NCBI GenBank assembly: GCA_021108435.1
Contig: JAIOQY010000198.1
Coordinates: 5,507 to 69,506 of the forward strand
Direction of reading: 5' to 3'
Length of the DNA stretch: 64,000 nucleotides
Origin: Candidatus Aegiribacteria sp.
GTDB lineage: Bacteria; Fermentibacterota; Fermentibacteria; Fermentibacterales; JCC-6
This document shows positions 2,489 through 11,561 of the stretch, piece by piece; the stretch's first letter is position 1; every line of letters begins with the position of its first letter. Below the pieces are notes generated by a model. The model was not told the origin of the DNA and did not search any database. It worked only from the letters and a program-made list of their open reading frames with translations. The position numbers were made by a program, and so were the translations under genes.

Positions 2489-3736
2489 ATGCTTGACAGG
2501 GGATTACTGAGAAACGAACCGGACAGGGTCCGGGAAGCCTCCTTGAACAAGGGAGAACCCTGCCCTATTGACAGGTGGCTTCTGCTCGATGAGGAACGAA
2601 GAGACCTGCTGGGCAGAACTGAAAGTCTGAGAAGACGGAGAAACGAACTTTCACAGGAAGTTTCCTCTTTAAAGAAGAGCGGTTCACAGGCTGATACTAA
2701 GATCGCTGAAAGCAAAAAAGTGGGTGACAGTATCGGACAGATCGATAAAGAACTGTCAGCAGTTAACAGAGAGATGGCAGAGGTTGAGCTCCAATTTGCA
2801 AATATTCCAGATCCCGATGTTCCCGTAGGTAAAGATGAATCCTTCAACAAAATTATCAGAACTTCCGGGGCAAGACCATCATTTGATTTCAAGCCTAAGC
2901 CTCATTGGGAAATCCTCGGCAGCCTCTTTGATCAGGAATCCTCCGGGGATATAGCCGGAGCAAATTTCATCCTTCTGCGAGGATGGGCAGCATGTTTACA
3001 GAGAAAGCTCATCAACTGGATGATGGATTTTCATTCTGAGGCGGGAATGGAAGAAATCTGGACTCCCTTTCTGGCAAACAGGGAAAGCATGACAACATCC
3101 GGACAGATCCCGAAGCTTGAATATGATATGTACCATATTGAAAAAGACGATCTTTTCCTGATTCCCACAGGAGAAGTTCCGCTCACCAATATCTATCGAA
3201 ACACTACTATGAATGAAAGTGTGCTTCCGGTTTCGATAGTCGGTTACACTCCCTGTTTCCGAAGGGAAGCCGGAAGCTACGGGAAAGATACCAGAGGTTT
3301 AAACAGGGTTCACCAGTTCGAAAAGGTGGAAATGGTGCGCTTCGAACATCCTGACCGGTCTGAAGAAGCTCTGGAAGAAATGGTTTCTCATGTCGAGAAG
3401 ATGCTCAGTCTTCTTGAACTCCCTTATAGAATCTCTGTTCTTTCGACTGGAGACCTCAGCTTCGCGGCGGCGAAATGCTACGATATCGAAGTATGGTCTG
3501 CGGGACAGGAAAAGTGGCTGGAAGTTTCCTCCATCTCAAATTTCAGGGATTTCCAGTCCAGACGGGGAAAGATCAGATTCAAACCCCTGGATGGCGGTAA
3601 ACCTCAATTCGTCCACACGCTGAACGGTTCGGGACTGGCTCTCCCCAGAATCATCGCCGCACTGATAGAGAACAATCAGACGGAGAATGGCAAGGTCAGA
3701 TTTCCTTCTGTCATTGCTGTAGATCCTGTTGTTTAA
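2489..3736 (+). CDS. serS: Seryl-tRNA synthetase
   Basis: 415 aa with an N-terminal coiled-coil arm, class II core TPCFRREAGSYGKDTRGLNRVHQFEKVEM and GSGLALPR. SD AAGGAGAAGGG lies upstream of the ATG. Confidence 0.95.
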   Translation: MLDRGLLRNEPDRVREASLNKGEPCPIDRWLLLDEERRDLLGRTESLRRRRNELSQEVSSLKKSGSQADTKIAESKKVGDSIGQIDKELSAVNREMAEVELQFANIPDPDVPVGKDESFNKIIRTSGARPSFDFKPKPHWEILGSLFDQESSGDIAGANFILLRGWAACLQRKLINWMMDFHSEAGMEEIWTPFLANRESMTTSGQIPKLEYDMYHIEKDDLFLIPTGEVPLTNIYRNTTMNESVLPVSIVGYTPCFRREAGSYGKDTRGLNRVHQFEKVEMVRFEHPDRSEEALEEMVSHVEKMLSLLELPYRISVLSTGDLSFAAAKCYDIEVWSAGQEKWLEVSSISNFRDFQSRRGKIRFKPLDGGKPQFVHTLNGSGLALPRIIAALIENNQTENGKVRFPSVIAVDPVV

Positions 3737-6492
3737 CCATGCTTATTTTCTCTCATTACATCTGCCAGTAACAGGGACAATTTCTCTATAGTCGGGGGTT
3801 TGAGTATCCATCCGGCTAATCCTTCTGAGCGAAGGTCTTCGAGTTCGTTCTCCATCGGATGACCGCTCATCATCACGATCGGAATATTCGAGCCTTGTTC
3901 TTTCAGCTGATTGAATAATGCTCGTCCACCCATTTCCGGCATTACGAAATCACTCAGAATCAATTCTATCTCAGGGTGTTCTTCCAGTCTTATCTGAGCT
4001 TCATGGCCGTTTTCAGCTTTCACAACCCGATAACCCATCATTTTCAGTGAGCTGACAAGAACTTTACGAACGATCCTGTCGTCTTCCACCACCAGTATAA
4101 CCTCGTCATGACCCCTGGTGATATCGGACTGCTTATTCCGATTCGATTTTTCCGTATAATGTTTCTTCAGGAGAGGTAGTCGAAGAATAAATGAGGTTCC
4201 TTCCCCTTCTGTCGATGCTACTTCTATATGGCCCTCATGCTGTTTGATTATTCCGAATACCTGTGCCAGTCCAAGTCCGGTTCCCTTTCCCGTCGGTTTT
4301 GTGGTGAAGAATGGTTCGAAAATATGTCCAAGTACATCGGATGGTATTCCGGAACCTGTATCGTTCACTGTTATACGTACCCATTCTCCGGCAGTGGTCT
4401 CTTTACACTTCGGACAACCGATGCTATCCGTTTCCTTCTGAAGCATCATTTTAAAATTCAGTTCTCCTCCATCCGGCATAGCATCTCTTGCGTTGACTGC
4501 CAGATTCAGGACTATCTGCTGTAACCTTGTCGGATCAGCGTTTATCCAGTATCTGTCCGCTCCATAATTCAGTTTCAGTTTGATATTCTCCGGCAGTGTT
4601 CGCTCAAGAAGTTTTTTCTGTTCCTTGAAAAAGGGCAGAAGATCCATCGGCAGGCGTTCCAGAACGGCTCGTCTGCCGAAATCCAGAAGCTGCTGGATCA
4701 ATTGTGCCGCTCTGTCAGCCTGACCGGAAATCGTTTCCAGATTCTCTCTTATATCGGAATGAGCGTCAGATGAAAGCAGTCCCATTTCTGTGCTGAGAGA
4801 GATAACTGCCATTATATTATTGAAGTCATGCGCTATACCTGCAGCCAGCTGACCAACAGCAGCAAGGTGTTCCTGCTGCTGGATCTGTTTTTGTCTATCC
4901 CTTTCCTGAGTTACTTCTCTGACCACCATCACCCAGCCCTGAGGACCGGGTTCCTTTTTCATCTGTCGTGCAATGATCTCGAAATATCTGTTCTCATATC
5001 TGATTTCATGCCATGATTCAGTGAGAGGTGAAATAAGAAGTTCATTCATAGAATGGTTCCCGATCTTATCAAGTATATCGCCAACCGCTGAATCCGACAG
5101 CAGACTCAGGAATTCCGCGGCAACGGGATTGGCAAGAATCACTTCATAATCCTCATTGAGCAGTATCATTCCCTCTGGAACCGTGTCGATTGTCTGCTGC
5201 ATCTGAAGAGCCTGCTCGTGTATCCGTTTGAGTAGAAGTTCCCGTTCCTCTTCAGTACGTTTTTGTTCGGTTATATCTCTGCAGATCCCTTCAAGAACGC
5301 TCATCTGCCCCTTATCATCGTAAACAGCGCTGTTTGACTGAAGTATCCACACCTCGTGTCCATCGGCATTGATAACCTTGTATTCAAAGGACGGAATCAA
5401 TTCACCATTCATAATGTCATGCCAATGACGCTCCATTGATGCTCTGAAGTCGGGATGTACTATTTTCATTATGAAAAGAGGTGTATCGAGGATTTCGTTC
5501 ATTGAATATCCGAAAACTTCCGAAACTACCGGAGATATGTAATCGAACTTCCCGTCAGACAGAGATATGCGAAAAACAGCTTCGCTCTGATTCTCAAGTA
5601 AATTTCTATACTTGCGTTCACTTTCACGCAGGGCGCAATCGCTTTTCCTCTGCCTGGATATATGTTTTGATGCCAGGAGTCCTCCCGCCAGACAGGCGAG
5701 TATGAAAAACATACGTATATACAGGTCATGCGGGGGAATATTCATTGCCAGAGAATCAAGAAAGGAATTACCTGAATGAAATGCGATTGACCCCACAATG
5801 CTGTCAGCAATCCAGAAAAGGACTCCAAGCAACAGAGCTATGCTGATAGCATAAACAGATTTTGAGTTATCGGTATCTTCTTTGAGTCCGAAGAATTTTC
5901 TTGGTTGTCCAAAATGCAGCAGTACATCTGCCAGGAGAAGGATGATATAGCCAACAACAGCCTGCTTTATGACTACGAATCTCGAAAATTCAATTGGGAC
6001 TGTAGCGGGTGAGGCTGAAGCCCAGCCCCAGGGTGGCGGATTCATTGATACAACCCACCTGGTAAGTGTTAGAAGATTGACTGAGGACAATATTCTGAAA
6101 GGGATCTCTACAAAATACTTGTTCAGCCACCATTTTCGGTTCCCTGTTTTTTCGCGAATGCCGGCGAATATTCCATGCCAGACAATCCATAAGGTAAATG
6201 GAGGAACGATTGCAAATATGGCATACCCGTTGCTTGGTCCCCAAAGCCACCACATTGACTGACATCCGCCGGTTATAGCTGACAGCAGTCCGTATTTCCA
6301 CCCCCATGCCTGCGTTACAAGCATAGGGAACAGTAAACCTATCAGCACAGTCGCTGTATACGGCGGGAAAGCGAAATTGATTGTATTGAAATTAAGCGCG
6401 AATCCGATCATTCCGAAAATGATCGATACTGCGACCTTATACGCAGCATTGATATTCCTGGGTTTACTCAGGCTGGAATACATGCTGTTCAA
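3733..6492 (-). CDS. Hybrid sensor histidine kinase (polytopic membrane N-terminus, PAS, HisKA, HATPase, C-terminal receiver)
   Basis: 919 aa. About 280 aa of TM-rich N-terminus, then a PAS-like region, H-box AAGIAHDFNNIM, G-box GTGLGLAQV, and a receiver (ILVVEDD...SDFVMPEMGG). Confidence 0.9.
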   Translation of the reverse strand: MNSMYSSLSKPRNINAAYKVAVSIIFGMIGFALNFNTINFAFPPYTATVLIGLLFPMLVTQAWGWKYGLLSAITGGCQSMWWLWGPSNGYAIFAIVPPFTLWIVWHGIFAGIREKTGNRKWWLNKYFVEIPFRILSSVNLLTLTRWVVSMNPPPWGWASASPATVPIEFSRFVVIKQAVVGYIILLLADVLLHFGQPRKFFGLKEDTDNSKSVYAISIALLLGVLFWIADSIVGSIAFHSGNSFLDSLAMNIPPHDLYIRMFFILACLAGGLLASKHISRQRKSDCALRESERKYRNLLENQSEAVFRISLSDGKFDYISPVVSEVFGYSMNEILDTPLFIMKIVHPDFRASMERHWHDIMNGELIPSFEYKVINADGHEVWILQSNSAVYDDKGQMSVLEGICRDITEQKRTEEERELLLKRIHEQALQMQQTIDTVPEGMILLNEDYEVILANPVAAEFLSLLSDSAVGDILDKIGNHSMNELLISPLTESWHEIRYENRYFEIIARQMKKEPGPQGWVMVVREVTQERDRQKQIQQQEHLAAVGQLAAGIAHDFNNIMAVISLSTEMGLLSSDAHSDIRENLETISGQADRAAQLIQQLLDFGRRAVLERLPMDLLPFFKEQKKLLERTLPENIKLKLNYGADRYWINADPTRLQQIVLNLAVNARDAMPDGGELNFKMMLQKETDSIGCPKCKETTAGEWVRITVNDTGSGIPSDVLGHIFEPFFTTKPTGKGTGLGLAQVFGIIKQHEGHIEVASTEGEGTSFILRLPLLKKHYTEKSNRNKQSDITRGHDEVILVVEDDRIVRKVLVSSLKMMGYRVVKAENGHEAQIRLEEHPEIELILSDFVMPEMGGRALFNQLKEQGSNIPIVMMSGHPMENELEDLRSEGLAGWILKPPTIEKLSLLLADVMRENKHG

Positions 6493-6559
6493 GATAATTC
6501 TATCTGATAAATATCAATGCTGGTCTCTCCGGACGTACCCTCCAGTTTTCCCCTATGGA

Positions 6560-6583
6560 GGACGGGCTCCGAAGAGCCCGTCC
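6560..6583 (-). terminator. Perfect 10-bp GC-rich hairpin with a UUCG loop (minus-strand sense) between the small ORF and the kinase gene; possible attenuator or RNA-stability element
   Basis: GGACGGGCTC-CGAA-GAGCCCGTCC on the plus strand, which gives cUUCGg on the minus strand. No U-tract follows on either strand. Confidence 0.3.
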
Positions 6584-6605
6584 CGCATGCACTGACGGTC
6601 TGCTC

Positions 6606-6875
6606 TCAGCGTGAAGCTACCATTAGCTCCATTACATTGTACTCCTCCATATGAGCCCTTGCCGCAAGGCGACCTGCAAGAGCTGCTGAAGAGTGGGGAT
6701 CTCTTCGAAGAGCACATTCGTAAAGAGCAAAAGCAGTAACGTAATTCCCGTCATCCATAGCCTCTCGCGCAATGGTGACAAAATTGTCAACATTGGCTGG
6801 GGTGGTCGATACGGTCACGCCTGCCAGCAGAACCGACGGTAGAAGTGCAACCAAAAGCAGTGGTATCCACCTCAT
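6606..6875 (-). CDS. Small secreted protein (89 aa) with a signal peptide and one TPR-like helix pair
   Basis: I prefer ATG 6875 (MRWIPLLLVALLPSVLLAG...) because GAGGAGG lies 8 nt upstream. The ORF-track start is GTG 6884. No homolog recognised. Confidence 0.6.
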   Translation of the reverse strand: MRWIPLLLVALLPSVLLAGVTVSTTPANVDNFVTIAREAMDDGNYVTAFALYECALRRDPHSSAALAGRLAARAHMEEYNVMELMVASR

Positions 6876-6914
6876 AGTGAGCACCTCCTCAATCCGCCGG
6901 CGGTTTCCCCCGAA

Positions 6915-7004
6915 CGGACGTCAGGTAACCCGGCTGTCCTTCCCGGTTTTCCGAGATGGGACCCGTGGTTTTGCGTCCCGGAATTCCTTCCGGTTTGCAA
7001 TGGT
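6915..7004 (-). promoter_or_regulatory. c-di-GMP-I (GEMM-I)-like riboswitch aptamer, gene-proximal unit
   Basis: Minus strand reads TTGCAAACC-GGAAGGAATTCC-GGGACGCAAAACCACGGGTCCC-ATCTCGGAAAACCGGGA-AGGACAGCCGGGTTACC. This matches the GCAAACC / GACGCAAA(G/A)CC / CCGGG / GGGUUACC signature and helix layout of V. cholerae Vc2. Boundaries are approximate. Confidence 0.8.
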
Positions 7005-7112
7005 CAAACGGCAACCCGGCTGTCCTTCCGCTGTCCCCAAACAGCGGCTGGGACCCGTGGTTTTGCGTCCCGGAATCTCGTCCGGTTTGCATGGCGGTGC
7101 TCTACCGCCTGG
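7005..7112 (-). promoter_or_regulatory. c-di-GMP-I (GEMM-I)-like riboswitch aptamer, gene-distal unit
   Basis: Minus strand reads GGCGGTAGAGCACCGCC-ATGCAAACC-GGACGAGATTCC-GGGACGCAAAACCACGGGTCCC-AGCCGCTGTTTGGGGACAGCGG-AAGGACAGCCGGGTTGCC. The core is the same as the proximal unit. The peripheral hairpin has a different sequence but still pairs. Confidence 0.8.
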
Positions 7113-7116
7113 TAAT

Positions 7117-7145
7117 ATTCTTACGACTTCTTCCAGTAATGTAAA
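7117..7145 (-). promoter_or_regulatory. Candidate sigma70-like promoter for the riboswitch leader
   Basis: Minus strand reads TTTACA, a 17-nt spacer, then AAGAAT, ending about 7 nt before the first leader hairpin. The -10 matches 4 of 6, so this is weak. Confidence 0.25.
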
Positions 7146-7246
7146 GGGAGATATACTACCACTAACAGAAATCGCTCTTTTTCAATTGATACCGGTAGTA
7201 TATATTGCGCTGAATATTTGGTTTTCTCTGCGAAGATTGGATTCTA

Positions 7247-8251
7247 TTGAATATCAGTGTAGTAATTCCGGTTCATAACGCTGAAGATACTCTGTTACGT
7301 GTTCTGAAATCCATTCTGCCTGAATTGCTTGATGGAGATCAGCTTATTGTAGCCGATGACCGTTCAGATGACGGTTCGGCAATAATCGCGAATGAAATAG
7401 AGCGGGTTGAATATGTATCCAGCAATCATTCAACCGGGGCAGCCGGTACACGCAATGCAGGGGCTTCTCTCGCTTTGAATGAATGGATTCTGTTTGTAGA
7501 CAGCGATGCGATCCCTCCAGAGGGATGGAGGAAATTGTTTGAAGACAAGATGTCCCTGGGATATCAGGGAATACAGGCAATATATGGAAAGACTGCGCCA
7601 GGTAACGATGCTTCCACTTTTTACAAGAATTACTACTATCACTATACTTTCACCAGGCGAATCAGGTCCGAGATCGTTCGAGGGTGTGCAACTTACTTCT
7701 TCGCGGTTAAAAGAGTTCTGTTCAATGAACTTGGAGGATTTGACGAAAGTTTTTCAGGTGCTTCTGTCGAAGATGCGGAATTTGCTGCAAGACTTATCAG
7801 TCATGGGGGGGAAATCCTGCTTGTTCCTGAAATTCAGATATATCATCTCAAGCAATACTCTTTTACTGAATTTCTGAGATACGAATGGATGATGATGAGG
7901 ACGAAAACCTGCCTTTTATTGCGGAATATGAAGGACCAATCCAGAGTCCCGTCGGTTTCAATGGCAAAACCGATTGAAATGCTCGGTGTTCTTTTATCAG
8001 GCATTTTGATCTGGTTCATCCCGGCGGGGTTTCTTCTGTATTCTCTTGGTGAACCTCTGGGACTTGTTGCAGCCAGTGCTGGAATTCTGTCTGTGGTGGT
8101 TAGCCATGGATTTTTCTGGGCTGCCATGCTCAAGGATGGAGGCTTACGCGGACTAAAAGCAGCTGCAGTCACTTTTCCCGATCTGATGCTGCTGCTGCCT
8201 GCGATCCTGTTTTCCTTCTATCAGGTTCTTATAAAGCGGAACGGAATCTGA
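7247..8251 (+). CDS. Family 2 glycosyltransferase with C-terminal transmembrane segments
   Basis: 334 aa. VVIPVHNAEDTL, ADDRSDDGS and FVDSDA (DxD) blocks of the GT-A fold, with a hydrophobic C-terminal third. TTG start. Confidence 0.85.
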   Translation: MNISVVIPVHNAEDTLLRVLKSILPELLDGDQLIVADDRSDDGSAIIANEIERVEYVSSNHSTGAAGTRNAGASLALNEWILFVDSDAIPPEGWRKLFEDKMSLGYQGIQAIYGKTAPGNDASTFYKNYYYHYTFTRRIRSEIVRGCATYFFAVKRVLFNELGGFDESFSGASVEDAEFAARLISHGGEILLVPEIQIYHLKQYSFTEFLRYEWMMMRTKTCLLLRNMKDQSRVPSVSMAKPIEMLGVLLSGILIWFIPAGFLLYSLGEPLGLVAASAGILSVVVSHGFFWAAMLKDGGLRGLKAAAVTFPDLMLLLPAILFSFYQVLIKRNGI

Positions 8252-8252
8252 T

Positions 8253-9980
8253 TTGAAGAAACTTATTCCCCTTATTCCAGGTATTATTCTGCTTGCTTTA
8301 TTTATCGCTTACTCTCTCTCCGGTATCAGATCAAGTGGTCCGCTGGATAAGCTTGTTCAGCTTCTGCTACTGGTTCCCTCTGTTATCCTCATCTCACTGT
8401 TCTATTCAGGTCAGACGGAAAAAGATCTTGCTGGAAAACTGCGTTATCTTATCATGCGTCCTTCTTCTGCCCTTTTCTGCGCTGCCGCCATGCTGCTGCT
8501 TCTGATCTTTTCCATCTGGATAGCCCTTGACGCGCTGGAGGAAATTCCCAAAGGTGGTGATGAGGTTGCCTACTTCTTCCAGTCAAAAGTATTTGCTTCG
8601 GGCAATCTTTCCGCTCCTGTGCCAGGGGTGTCTGACCCGAGGAATTACTTTCCTTTCAGGCATTTCATTTTCAGAAATGGCATGTGGTTCATCATGTATA
8701 CTCCAACCCATGCACTTGCGATGGCTCCTTTTACACTGCTGCGTATTTCCTGGCTCCTTGGTCCGATTGAAGGGATACTTATTCTTCTGGGTATTTACCT
8801 TCTTGTAAAAACCTGGTCCTGCGAACTGTATGCCAGAGTTTGTGTGATTCTCCTGCTTTTGTCCCCATTCTTCCTTCTCATGATACCTACCTATATGGCA
8901 CACAATTCTAATCTTCTTTTCGTAACCTGGGGTCTTCTGCTTCTTTCAAAGGGCTGGAAGGAAGACAGACTTCTTCTATCCATAATTTCAGGCTTTCTAC
9001 TGGGAACCGCTTTCACAACCAAGCCGTATCCTATTATCGCATGGGGGCTTTTCCTTACCGTGTTTCTGCTTCTTCGAGGAAAAAAGGGGATTCGACATCT
9101 TCTTTGTATGGCTGCCGGATCACTCCTGCCTGCTGCATTTCTTTTCACCACGAACTGGTACTACACCGGAAATCCCCTGCACACAACCTACGAACTGGCA
9201 AGGGGAGGCAGCCTGGTTGGTTTCGGGAAAGGAAGAGCGTATTACCCTGTTTACGGGAATTTCGACCACACTGTTTTCAAGGGAATAAAGAACGTAGCAC
9301 ACCAGTTCATTATTGGCAGCATAGCCCTTTTCGGATGGCCGGGTATCTCAGGCGTTCCTATTCTGATCGCATTTTGGAAAGGTCTTCGAACATCAACAGT
9401 GAGATGGCTTTTTGTTCCCCCTGCCATACTTGCTCTCCTTCTTGTGGCACACTACGCTCCTGCTATAGCCTACGGTCCGAGGCATTATTTCACCATGATC
9501 CCCATATTCATTTTTCTGTCTTCATTGGGGATTTCTATCTTCATTAAATACTATACGACTAAGTTCGGCCTGAGGGGGAGTAATTTCGCTGTCCTTGTAA
9601 TCGCCGGGTTATTCTGCATAACAATTTTCACCTACCTTCCGGAAGAAATTTCCCTGAGATCTGGTCCCTGGCAGGCAATAGACCGGGAACCCTCACGAAT
9701 GGCCTCTGAAGTTGTGGAGATACCCGCAGTAGTTTTTATGCAGGCAGATGAGCATGGATATCCAAACATATGCAGCGGGCTACTTTTGAATTCCCCTGAC
9801 CTCTCAGGAGATATCATATACTGTGCTCACCAGACGGAGGAGAGTGACCGAGCTTTCATGGAACTCTACCCTGACAGACAGTATTACCTGTTCTGGTTTG
9901 ATGGAAGGGAATCTCACATGGAGCAGTGGTCTGAAACCCGCGCAGATGCTCTTGAACCCTCCTACAGCATGAGAAAATAG
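8253..9980 (+). CDS. Polytopic GT-C-type glycosyltransferase (ArnT/PMT-like, GT39/GT83-like)
   Basis: 575 aa with at least 10 hydrophobic helices. A DEVAYF acidic motif follows the early helices, as in ArnT/PMT enzymes. TTG start lies 1 nt after the upstream stop. Confidence 0.6.
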   Translation: MKKLIPLIPGIILLALFIAYSLSGIRSSGPLDKLVQLLLLVPSVILISLFYSGQTEKDLAGKLRYLIMRPSSALFCAAAMLLLLIFSIWIALDALEEIPKGGDEVAYFFQSKVFASGNLSAPVPGVSDPRNYFPFRHFIFRNGMWFIMYTPTHALAMAPFTLLRISWLLGPIEGILILLGIYLLVKTWSCELYARVCVILLLLSPFFLLMIPTYMAHNSNLLFVTWGLLLLSKGWKEDRLLLSIISGFLLGTAFTTKPYPIIAWGLFLTVFLLLRGKKGIRHLLCMAAGSLLPAAFLFTTNWYYTGNPLHTTYELARGGSLVGFGKGRAYYPVYGNFDHTVFKGIKNVAHQFIIGSIALFGWPGISGVPILIAFWKGLRTSTVRWLFVPPAILALLLVAHYAPAIAYGPRHYFTMIPIFIFLSSLGISIFIKYYTTKFGLRGSNFAVLVIAGLFCITIFTYLPEEISLRSGPWQAIDREPSRMASEVVEIPAVVFMQADEHGYPNICSGLLLNSPDLSGDIIYCAHQTEESDRAFMELYPDRQYYLFWFDGRESHMEQWSETRADALEPSYSMRK

Positions 9981-10130
9981 TAATCTCTTCTTTCAGTTAC
10001 ACGCTGCACAATGTATATTCGGCACGTTAATCAGAAGTCTTATACCTGTGACTGTAACGGAAATATCCGCGGCAAACCAGGTTGAAAATAATACTGTTAC
10101 TATACTTACTAGTATCTTAAAGAGAGGAAA

Positions 10131-11561
10131 ATGAGGGTAGTTCTTTTCGTTCCAAACTGGAAATTCGCTGACATGAGGGCTCATGATACTCAGGGTATCG
10201 CTGGTGTATGGGCACCCACCGGTTTGATGTATGTAGCTTCCGTGCTGAGGGAGGCGGGACATCAGGTTTTCATTGAGGATGGCGCATTCTGGTCGGAGGA
10301 AGAGCTTACTGACAGGATTCTCAGCCATGAACCGGATATCGCAGGTGCCTTTGTAATAGCGATGTTCTGGGAACGGACAAAGAAACTTCTGACGAACCTG
10401 AAATCAGCCAGACCGGATATCAGGCTTTTGGTCGGGGGACACGCTCCATCCGCACTTGGAAGAAAGTGCCTTGAGGAATCTCCGGAACTCGATTCAGCGG
10501 TGCACAGTGAAGGCGAATACACTGTTAGAGAACTGGTTAATGCCTGGGAACAGGGCCTTGACACTGCAGGTATCCAGGGGTGTGTTGTTCGTGATGCAGA
10601 GGGGAATATCGTTGAGAATCAGCCCCGGAGACTGATAGAGAACCTTGACGAACTTCCTTTCCCCGCTGTTGATCTTGTTGATCTTGACAGATATCAGCCT
10701 TCCGCAGGCCAGGTTCTGCGCCTTCCCGTAATGCAGGTTATAAGTTCGCGTGGCTGCACCCATATGTGCCTTTACTGCTACAGACTCATGGGTGACCGCT
10801 GCCTTAGAATGCGATCACCTGAAAACGTAGTTGATGAAATTGAGCTTTATGTAAGGGAATACGGAGCAAAGGAAATCAAGTTCTGGGATGAACTGTTCAC
10901 GCATGATAAAGCCAGAGTCATGGAAATCTGCCGTCTCATCAATGAAAGAGATCTTGATATCACCTGGTGGTGCTCTGCCAGGGGTGACAGTGTAGACGAG
11001 GAATTACTCAGAACCATGAAGAAGGCTGGATGCTGGTGCATTAATTTCGGTGTTGAATCCGCAGTACAGAAGAACCTTGATACCCTCAGAAAAGGGATAA
11101 AAATAGAGACATCCATAGAAGCTATCAAGCTGACGCACAGAGTTGGTATAAAAACCTTCGGCACATACATCTTCGGAATTCCCGGAGAAACTTTCGAGGA
11201 GGGTCTTGAGACTATTCGTCTTGCCAGGAAGCTGAGATCGTACTACACTGAATTCTTTCCAATTACACCCTTTCCAGGGGCAGAACTCTACGAGAACTCA
11301 ACAAAATATGGAGTTGTTCTAAGGGATATGTCGGATTCCGGTATGCTAAAAGAGGAAATTCCCTTTGAGCCGTTCTCAATGAGCGCAAAACAGATAGCTG
11401 AACTTAGGAAACGGGCATTCAGGACAGTTTATCTCGATCCTGGATACATCCTTATGAGATTATGGTCTCTTAGAAGCTGGTATGAGGTCAGAACCGTTTT
11501 CAGGGGAGCAATTTCTCTTCTGATGATGCTGTTCAGGAAAAAATATCCTGCCGATTCTTAA
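10131..11561 (+). CDS. B12-binding-domain radical SAM enzyme (class B-like)
   Basis: 476 aa. N-terminal Rossmann-like B12 domain (MRVVLFVPNW...LLVGGHAPS), then SSRGCTHMCLYC (CxxxCxxC) and a TIM-barrel region. SD AGAGAGGAAAATG. Confidence 0.85.
   Translation: MRVVLFVPNWKFADMRAHDTQGIAGVWAPTGLMYVASVLREAGHQVFIEDGAFWSEEELTDRILSHEPDIAGAFVIAMFWERTKKLLTNLKSARPDIRLLVGGHAPSALGRKCLEESPELDSAVHSEGEYTVRELVNAWEQGLDTAGIQGCVVRDAEGNIVENQPRRLIENLDELPFPAVDLVDLDRYQPSAGQVLRLPVMQVISSRGCTHMCLYCYRLMGDRCLRMRSPENVVDEIELYVREYGAKEIKFWDELFTHDKARVMEICRLINERDLDITWWCSARGDSVDEELLRTMKKAGCWCINFGVESAVQKNLDTLRKGIKIETSIEAIKLTHRVGIKTFGTYIFGIPGETFEEGLETIRLARKLRSYYTEFFPITPFPGAELYENSTKYGVVLRDMSDSGMLKEEIPFEPFSMSAKQIAELRKRAFRTVYLDPGYILMRLWSLRSWYEVRTVFRGAISLLMMLFRKKYPADS

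Follow-up and report, generated by a model that had tools for sequence, protein, structure and literature searches.

A candidate two-aptamer c-di-GMP-I riboswitch with a variable position 20 in front of a small secreted-protein gene of Candidatus Aegiribacteria

The stretch of DNA analysed here, in the following called the window, comprises 64,000 nucleotides of contig JAIOQY010000198.1 from Candidatus Aegiribacteria sp. (assembly GCA_021108435.1, phylum Fermentibacterota). Its minus strand harbors a gene for a small protein with a signal peptide, which is preceded by a promoter-like site, a 5'-terminal hairpin, two directly joined aptamers of the c-di-GMP-I (GEMM-I) class, one further hairpin and a Shine-Dalgarno (SD) sequence (Table 1). 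When the whole window was compared with the 4227 Rfam families by cmscan at gathering thresholds, two matches were obtained in total, both to RF01051 and both on the minus strand. They extend over the full model length with scores well above its gathering score of 35, which confirms the tandem GEMM-I aptamers that had been proposed in a preliminary description of this DNA. The c-di-GMP-II model, suggested there as a control, gave no match in a permissive scan (E up to 10) of the region, and no other Rfam family was credible for positions 6300-7600 in the permissive scan. The identical cores of 26 and 17 nt noted earlier are parts of two longer direct repeats, one with 43-nt copies at 6957-6999 and 7049-7091 (93% identity), the other with 20-nt copies at 6924-6943 and 7010-7029 (95% identity), and it is also correct that the peripheral hairpins diverge in sequence between the units and keep their pairing. 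Likewise, the SD, the ATG at 6875 and the 89-codon open reading frame (ORF) ending at 6606 are found where they had been placed.

Table 1. Features of the riboswitch locus in the window (positions of the 64,000-nt stretch).
Feature	Position	Strand	Description
Promoter-like site	7145-7117	minus	TTTACA (7145-7140), 17-nt spacer, AAGAAT (7122-7117); from a consensus scan
5'-terminal hairpin	7109-7093	minus	GGCGG-UAGAGCA-CCGCC; near-invariant in 22 leaders including the 3' half of the loop; 98.5% of cells paired
Distal c-di-GMP-I aptamer	7101-7007	minus	RF01051, 59.6 bits, E=3.9e-9, model 1-87/87
Distal pocket	U20 = 7091, A47 = 7064, C92 = 7011	minus	
Linker CGUUUG	7010-7005	minus	directly 3' of distal C92; proposed 5' strand of the proximal P1 (shared P1)
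Proximal c-di-GMP-I aptamer	7006-6921	minus	RF01051, 61.3 bits, E=1.5e-9, model 1-87/87
Proximal pocket	U20 = 6999, A47 = 6972, C92 = 6925	minus	
CUGACG	6924-6919	minus	directly 3' of proximal C92; would form the 3' strand of the shared P1; most relatives have CAGACG or CAAACG
Platform hairpin	6918-6893	minus	between aptamers and SD; variable sequence with compensatory changes
SD GAGGAGG	6890-6884	minus	followed by an invariant spacer, to 6879
Regulated gene, 89-aa protein	6875-6606	minus	N-terminal signal peptide, three-helix TPR-like domain
GC-rich hairpin GGGACGGGCUC-UUCG-GAGCCCGUCC	6584-6559	minus	without U tract; about 25 nt past the stop codon, before the kinase gene

The arrangement of doublet and small gene is conserved throughout the lineage. 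Among species-representative genomes, the small protein was found at 11 loci, all of them in metagenome-assembled genomes of Candidatus Aegiribacteria/Fermentibacteria and with 67-93% identity; two Bdellovibrio matches were weak and came without a riboswitch. The protein search returned 39 homolog clusters at an identity of at least 60%, which are confined to the lineage. An abutting RF01051 doublet was present in every orthologous locus with sufficient upstream DNA, and the orthologous aptamers score between 53.8 and 68.1 bits. Alignment A2 contains 22 distinct leaders, including contigs of divergent members, and the doublet, the promoter-like site, the 5' hairpin, a covarying platform hairpin and the SD are kept in all of them, so that the earlier claim that the tandem aptamers lead the gene of the signal-peptide protein holds in all 22 leaders. 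A structure of the leader was written by hand, from the 5' hairpin through the two aptamers with the linker helix to the platform hairpin, and scored for pairing on A2. Standard pairs occupy 95.5% of the cells, and compensatory changes were counted at 13 pairs in 48 cells; none of 500 shuffled controls matched these values for pairing and compensation, and pairing fell to 25-48% when the partners were slid. The double changes map to the platform hairpin and, within each aptamer, to the peripheral stems (helices 3, 5, 8 and 10), with P1a and P1b covarying in both units, namely in their distal stems in the distal aptamer and in P1a and the P1b tip in the proximal one. The tetraloop of P1a is of the GNRA type (GAGA, GAAA, GGAA or GUAA) in nearly all units, and in the distal unit of the window the GAGA loop is closed by a C.U mismatch. 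Collectively, the leader is an RNA under selection for its fold.

In this regard, a protein-coding origin of the region with an incidental RNA match has to be considered, because the ORFs 6772-7278 (plus strand) and 6889-7092 (minus strand) are mechanically present and public gene callers sometimes lengthen the small ORF into the leader (131-156 aa). These overlapping ORFs had been named before as a possible objection to the RNA; however, they are no evidence of coding, since the orthologous leaders differ by 1-2-nt indels in loops and by compensatory changes in stems. Moreover, the two full-length covariance-model matches are independent of each other, each with E values around 1e-9, and none of the leader frames is open throughout in all orthologs, which makes the coding alternative practically negligible. 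The conservation of reading frames as such was discarded as a coding test, as a GC-rich leader such as this one leaves most frames open by chance. The public calls P0009, P0013, P0019, P0025 and P0028, 131-156 aa in length, begin inside the riboswitch leader, and the clusters of 74-75 aa such as P0029-P0039 begin about 14 codons downstream of the conserved AUG; both kinds are likely start-site errors. For annotation this means that the 131-156-aa and 75-aa ORF calls have misplaced starts.

The product of the small ORF gave no Pfam match at E <= 1e-3. The AlphaFold model reaches a confidence score (predicted local distance difference test, pLDDT) of about 90 over residues 31-70 and displays three helices, for which TPR domains were the best PDB matches in a fold search, none of them at E <= 0.001. 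Many orthologs contain a lipobox-like VSSC motif. A position in the 5' untranslated region ahead of a gene for a secreted protein is typical of GEMM elements, and the locus suggests a small secreted TPR-like protein as an output of cyclic-dinucleotide signalling. To our knowledge, the element represents the first known handle on this kind of signalling in uncultured Fermentibacterota. The preliminary description had additionally supposed that the hybrid histidine kinase gene on the same strand might be co-regulated, with a hairpin lacking a U tract in between. This hairpin is indeed present; however, it proved to be a conserved, covarying element that marks the end of the unit. A GC hairpin of 10-12 bp with compensatory changes was found roughly 25 nt past the stop codon of the small ORF at 18 of the 18 loci examined, including loci with convergent serS, and the unit under riboswitch control probably ends there. 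Transcripts in this lineage may usually end in this form, or the hairpin may serve the small ORF and serS together as a bidirectional terminator. The hybrid kinase gene was seen next to the small ORF, beyond the conserved hairpin, only in the closest relatives of the window (L003, L004 and L006). The downstream neighbour is a convergent serS gene at 13 loci (L136, L137, L140, L142-L144, L146-L151, and partial at the locus end in L145), a peroxiredoxin gene in L139 and a sulfatase gene in L141. This varied synteny, together with the closing hairpin, led us to reject the kinase as a conserved target. Only the small ORF is syntenic and the hairpin closes the unit, hence the conserved unit comprises promoter, leader, small ORF and hairpin, and the kinase looks like a lineage-specific insertion past its end that should not be placed in the regulon.

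The anatomy of the leader suggests that both aptamers would share one translational platform. The Rfam matches abut at 7007/7006, and the gap between the distal C92 (7011) and the proximal U20 (6999) amounts to 11 nt (7010-7000); hence no expression platform is situated between the aptamers, and a terminator-like site between the units was not found. All 22 leaders show two aptamers followed by one platform hairpin and one SD, which is a statement on anatomy only. Within the platform hairpin, one pair occurs as CG in eight, UA in seven and UG in five leaders of A2 (CG in five and UA in five of alignment A1), and the closing U-A pair is replaced by A-U in L139 and L146, as seen by eye in the raw sequences. 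An intrinsic terminator in the platform was rejected, as the terminator-scan matches nearby are weak or lie in coding sequence; the preliminary description had likewise seen no canonical terminator, and translational control, which it had considered, is therefore the likelier mode. At the 5' end, the orthologs keep the TTTACA element and its spacing from the 5' hairpin, with variable sequence in the 7 nt that separate this hairpin from the -10 element; transcription would thus start at about 7110/7109, at the foot of the 5' hairpin. The linker CGUUUG is invariant at five of its six positions (CGUUCG in L142), and its pairing with CAGACG appears in the minimum free energy (MFE) folds of most orthologs. 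Four pairs of this helix are invariant, one shows a change from U-G to U-A, and one is broken in 5 of the 22 leaders. It could represent the P1 of the proximal aptamer, each end bearing C93 of one aptamer. Three further local pairings were dropped: a hairpin of the SD (UGAG/CUCA) proposed by RNAalifold is broken without compensation in L008, L136/L137 and L138; a 3-bp GAC/GUC helix of linker and tail had shown an apparent A/U swap in L146, where the U-to-A change of the tail is compensated inside the platform hairpin (ACCG...CGGU); and pairing of the linker CUCAAU with AUUGAG of the SD region is restricted to L007-type leaders and lost in the group of the window.

Tandem elements of this class are well known, with 347 doublets and 12 triplets of c-di-GMP-I riboswitches on record (Sherlock et al. 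2022), and abutting RF01051 arrays were also detected in unrelated metagenome contigs (L026, L045 and L088), hence the tandem arrangement as such is ordinary. Bc3-5 of Bacillus thuringiensis likewise contains several aptamers of the same class in one leader, from which a sharper dose response is expected. However, a terminator follows each aptamer there, whereas the window has a single platform and 11 nt between the pockets. A review classes tandem c-di-GMP-I elements under multiple expression platforms, and such a platform after each aptamer is absent from the window. The glycine riboswitch, with two directly joined aptamers of the same class and one platform, offers a closer works-like analogy, since this anatomy is also realized here, although its fold and ligand are unrelated and cooperativity in the present case is suggested only by the possible shared helix.

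GEMM-I RNAs are the textbook case of a ligand change through a single pocket nucleotide, with G20 for c-di-GMP and A20 for cGAMP. In Vc2 of Vibrio cholerae, the prototype of the class, G20 contacts G-alpha via its Hoogsteen face, A47 intercalates, and C92 pairs with G-beta. Published work showed that U at G20 or C92 disrupts binding, the G20U variant of Vc2 retaining only low-micromolar affinity for c-di-GMP, and that A20 marks the cGAMP sensors among these RNAs. In the 22 leaders, A47, C92 and C93 are invariant in all 44 aptamers, as are GCAAA and GACGCAAA. Both units of the window carry U directly 5' of GCAAACC (7091 and 6999), as had been noticed before, and cmscan aligns each U to the conserved G of the RF01051 model. 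The departure at this specificity position is genuine: it concerns position 20, and the literature agrees on the role of G20 and A20. The distal unit has C in eight, U in seven, G in five and A in two leaders, the proximal unit U in fifteen, C in four, G in two and A in one; with 1.86 bits the distal site is the third most variable of the 259 leader columns. The loci L136 and L137 encode an identical protein and differ at seven leader positions, two of which are the position-20 sites of both units. U/U is fixed in the sublineage of the window, A20 is confined to L010 (distal unit only, A/U) and L137 (both units), and natural G/G and G/C combinations exist in L139 and L138, respectively. Mutual information of position 20 with other columns revealed lineage-wide co-variation only and no specific partner. 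For comparison, a pattern across the P1a core that left position 20 unconstrained was applied to metagenome sequences; among the matches listed, 125 cores contain G in 114, A in 10, C in one and U in no case. This G-dominated sample and the published G20U data indicate that the departure from G20 is real, lineage-specific and functionally relevant. Hence, the lineage provides a natural series in which the rest of the pocket is frozen and all four bases at position 20 stand before one orthologous gene. Such a series could reveal whether the native effect of a pyrimidine at this site is weaker c-di-GMP sensing, cGAMP sensing or something novel, and whether tight tandem packing offsets a weak site.

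The assignment to known families leads to a mixed picture. The aptamers resemble RF01051 and Vc2 in the full-length match, the GC/GC junction pairs, P1a with its GNRA loop, P1b, GACGCAAA with A47 and C92 in the 3' tail, and they differ in U20 of both units, where the sampled cores are dominated by G, and in the distal unit, which has no conventional P1 from its own flanks. The GEMM-Ib aptamers of Geobacter, which sense 3'3'-cGAMP, share the fold, a specificity altered at position 20 and the retained C92; however, they carry A20, whereas the window carries U20 (one relative is A/A and one A/U), and the combination of A20 with C92 is absent from the window. The consensus lines of RF01051 and RF03168 show that the name c-di-GMP-I-UAU of the latter stands for U20, A47 and U92 (GUC tail). 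At permissive thresholds RF03168 is the best match of the clan by E-value, and it shares U20 and A47 with the window aptamers, but its consensus U92 is replaced by C92 in their ACC and GCC tails, and its scores of 60.2 and 43.3 bits stay below the gathering score of 65.9; therefore an assignment to RF03168 was rejected. The pocket state U20/A47/C92 is thus described by neither RF01051 nor RF03168 and by no curated family. We found no precedent for its fixation in both units of a doublet or for a position 20 that is free within one orthologous family.

Since C92 is conserved, the ligand should contain a guanine that is read by this nucleotide. Among such ligands c-di-GMP is modestly favoured, in which case the nucleotide at position 20 would weaken or tune its contact at the alpha site; cGAMP or another G-containing dinucleotide appears rather unlikely. 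In favour of c-di-GMP, some relatives hold G20 in one or both units upstream of the same gene, and the occurrence of all four bases is easier to reconcile with tuned affinity or relaxed constraint than with a clean ligand switch. In the relative L138 (GCA_977971045.1), the gene that directly precedes the riboswitch, in the same orientation (L138:1-1896, plus strand), encodes a 631-aa PAS-PAS-GAF-GGDEF protein, the GGDEF motif of which is intact. According to an alignment with PleD, this protein presumably has Asp at the Hypr-Ser site (PleD D344). Hypr GGDEF enzymes, which make cGAMP, carry Ser at that site. It is possible that the protein is a local source of the ligand in this relative. It might also be argued that the pockets of the window have switched their ligand, with C92 reading guanine, U20 reading adenine through a U.A Hoogsteen-type contact, and the doublet sensing 3'3'-cGAMP or another G-containing cyclic or linear dinucleotide. 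Position 20 is indeed an established specificity switch at which G20U impairs c-di-GMP binding, the proximal unit has U20 in most leaders, the sublineage of the window is without G in either unit, the lack of U20 among the 125 cores listed argues against family-wide random drift, and A20 occurs in both aptamers of L137. However, all four bases including G/G stand before one orthologous gene, loci with identical protein differ at both sites, and the sole cyclase seen beside the element in the lineage shows the canonical Asp state. Furthermore, 246 kb of lineage DNA yielded no cGAMP synthase, with no DncV/CD-NTase query made there and a loose CD-NTase motif used for the window, and the U.A Hoogsteen geometry is our own reasoning only. 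We therefore consider a ligand switch to be improbable. A third reading takes the element for a decaying or ligand-independent relic, the pockets of which bind nothing while the leader is merely structured, because position 20 behaves as an unconstrained site in its variability and in the L136/L137 comparison. It is contradicted by the remaining pocket and junction nucleotides, by the kept GNRA tetraloops and by stems that vary by compensation alone, all of which indicate purifying selection on a ligand-binding fold, and is thus very improbable.

Regarding the mode of action, the loop and 3' arm of the 5' hairpin, GAGCACCGCC (7102-7093), could act as an anti-SD that alternatively pairs with GGAGGUGCUC (6888-6879, the SD and its spacer), and the 5' arm GGCGG would be a mimic of the SD, that is, an anti-anti-SD. 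The long-range helix would take the place of the distal P1, with the proximal aptamer, its P1 and the platform hairpin nested within. Ligand binding stabilises P1 in canonical GEMM-I RNAs; by analogy, two filled pockets might favour the long-range helix and hide the SD, so that the gene would be turned OFF with a steep, two-site dependence on the ligand. We regard this direction and mechanism as tentative, with slightly less than an even chance of being right. The segments GAGCACCGCC and GGAGGUGCUC are complementary at nine of ten positions, and in each of the 11 leaders tested no segment pairs better with the SD region than the anti-SD, with dinucleotide-shuffle p values of about 0.02-0.04 in eight, 0.08 in one and no significance in the two with a G-rich SD. 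Unconstrained MFE folds adopt the long-range helix in 7 of 11 orthologs, its pairing potential is retained in 96.5% of the cells, and the hairpin and long-range states are -3.7 to +3.4 kcal/mol apart in the 22 leaders. Neither strand of the helix varies, even though a hairpin loop provides one of them and the spacer between SD and AUG the other, and the 3 nt that follow this spacer, before the AUG, include the leader's most variable column. We also considered whether GGAGGUGCUC is merely the usual extended SD of this genome and rejected this, because GGAGGUG occurs upstream of none of the 42 other gene starts in the window.

A different output of real aptamers is less probable than this sequestration and rather unlikely in our view, though it deserves attention: the riboswitch could be ligand-ON, or act via Rho-dependent termination or mRNA stability, with the 5' hairpin as a mere stabilising cap. 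Protection of mRNA by 5'-terminal hairpins is common. The long-range helix has no covariation support, the shuffle test of the anti-SD is modest and fails with a G-rich SD, and the computed SD accessibility is the same with enforced aptamers. Furthermore, Vc2 has been reported to act via RNA stability without intrinsic termination. Such an output is disfavoured by the 3' half of the loop and the SD-proximal spacer, which are invariant and mutually complementary while adjacent positions are free, by the rank of this complementarity as the best SD partner, and by two states that are nearly isoenergetic in 22 of 22 leaders.

On balance, the element of the window appears to be a functional two-aptamer c-di-GMP-I riboswitch in the 5' untranslated region of a monocistronic gene for a small secreted TPR-like protein, and several observations weigh against this reading and its OFF mechanism. 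Given the behaviour of Vc2 G20U, the U/U pockets may bind c-di-GMP poorly or prefer another ligand, G20 is wholly missing from the sublineage of the window, and genes for GGDEF, EAL or HD-GYP proteins were not found in the 64-kb window. The shared P1 lacks compensatory changes and contains mismatches, U.U in the window and L004-L006 and C.U in L142. Neither does the long-range anti-SD helix show compensatory changes, and its invariance leaves covariation unable to test it, so that it remains inferential; L144 lacks its terminal pair. Enforcing the aptamer helices does not alter SD accessibility in the window (0.30 versus 0.30 in a plain thermodynamic model), hence coupling to the ligand is argued by analogy. 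Moreover, the transcription start, on which the anti-SD depends, is a prediction from sequence, and the OFF direction is tentative.

Some observations extend to other organisms. Metagenome contig Ga0079305_1000707 (L026:5308-6045, plus strand) contains seven abutting RF01051 aptamers (62-74 bits) in some 740 nt, and an SD and ATG follow directly. Along the array, the bases at position 20 are A, G, A, G, C, G and C; the literature on tandem c-di-GMP-I describes doublets and triplets. Among the matches listed for 120 loci (L016-L135), bases other than G at position 20 occur in 11 of 40 array units and 9 of 102 singletons (Fisher p about 0.007), and pyrimidines in 4 of 40 and 1 of 102 (p about 0.02), with the restriction that these statistics treat units as independent, which units within one array are not; the enrichment is therefore only a lead. 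It might be speculated, with considerable doubt, that GEMM-I RNAs with a pyrimidine or another non-G base at position 20 form a natural subclass mainly in tightly abutted arrays. In the Aegiribacteria doublet, the pockets would cap the two ends of one shared helix enclosed by the long-range SD/anti-SD helix, and occupation of one pocket would pre-organise the other. Position 20 would thereby be free for retuning of affinity or base preference at the alpha site (G, A or pyrimidine) by single substitutions. If true, the element would be a cooperative and evolvable cyclic-dinucleotide sensor rather than two independent c-di-GMP switches. The doublet L045:4210-4383 (minus strand) of another organism joins a G20 unit to a C20 unit, the P1a of which is much like that of the Aegiribacteria units; its ribosome-binding site is AGGAGGUGCU, and a complementary GGAGCAC is present in the linker. 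The ORF downstream of it was rejected as a homolog of the small protein and encodes an unrelated secreted protein. Above-gathering matches to c-di-GMP-I-GGC (RF03167) were seen at L095:110-184, L095:1124-1203 and L027:308-406; in L095 each of them adjoins an upstream GEMM-I-like core with A20, of which the first alone reaches the RF01051 gathering score.

Finally, the neighbouring genes vary among the loci. The hybrid kinase of the window (3733-6492, minus strand) consists of a membrane N-terminus followed by PAS, HisKA, HATPase and REC domains; its gene forms an insertion between small ORF and convergent serS that is confined to the sublineage of the window (L003, L004 and L006). In L136, L137 and L146 a PAS/GAF hybrid kinase gene is located upstream of the riboswitch instead, and in L136 and L137 its product shares about 28% identity with the kinase of the window. 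On the other side, the window region 7247-11561 (plus strand) starts with a glycosyltransferase-2 gene divergent from the riboswitch promoter, followed by genes for a 575-aa polytopic membrane protein without Pfam match in the window (weak PMT_2 in L141) and for a B12-binding radical-SAM protein; in the relatives, two tandem B12/radical-SAM genes are often found upstream of the riboswitch.

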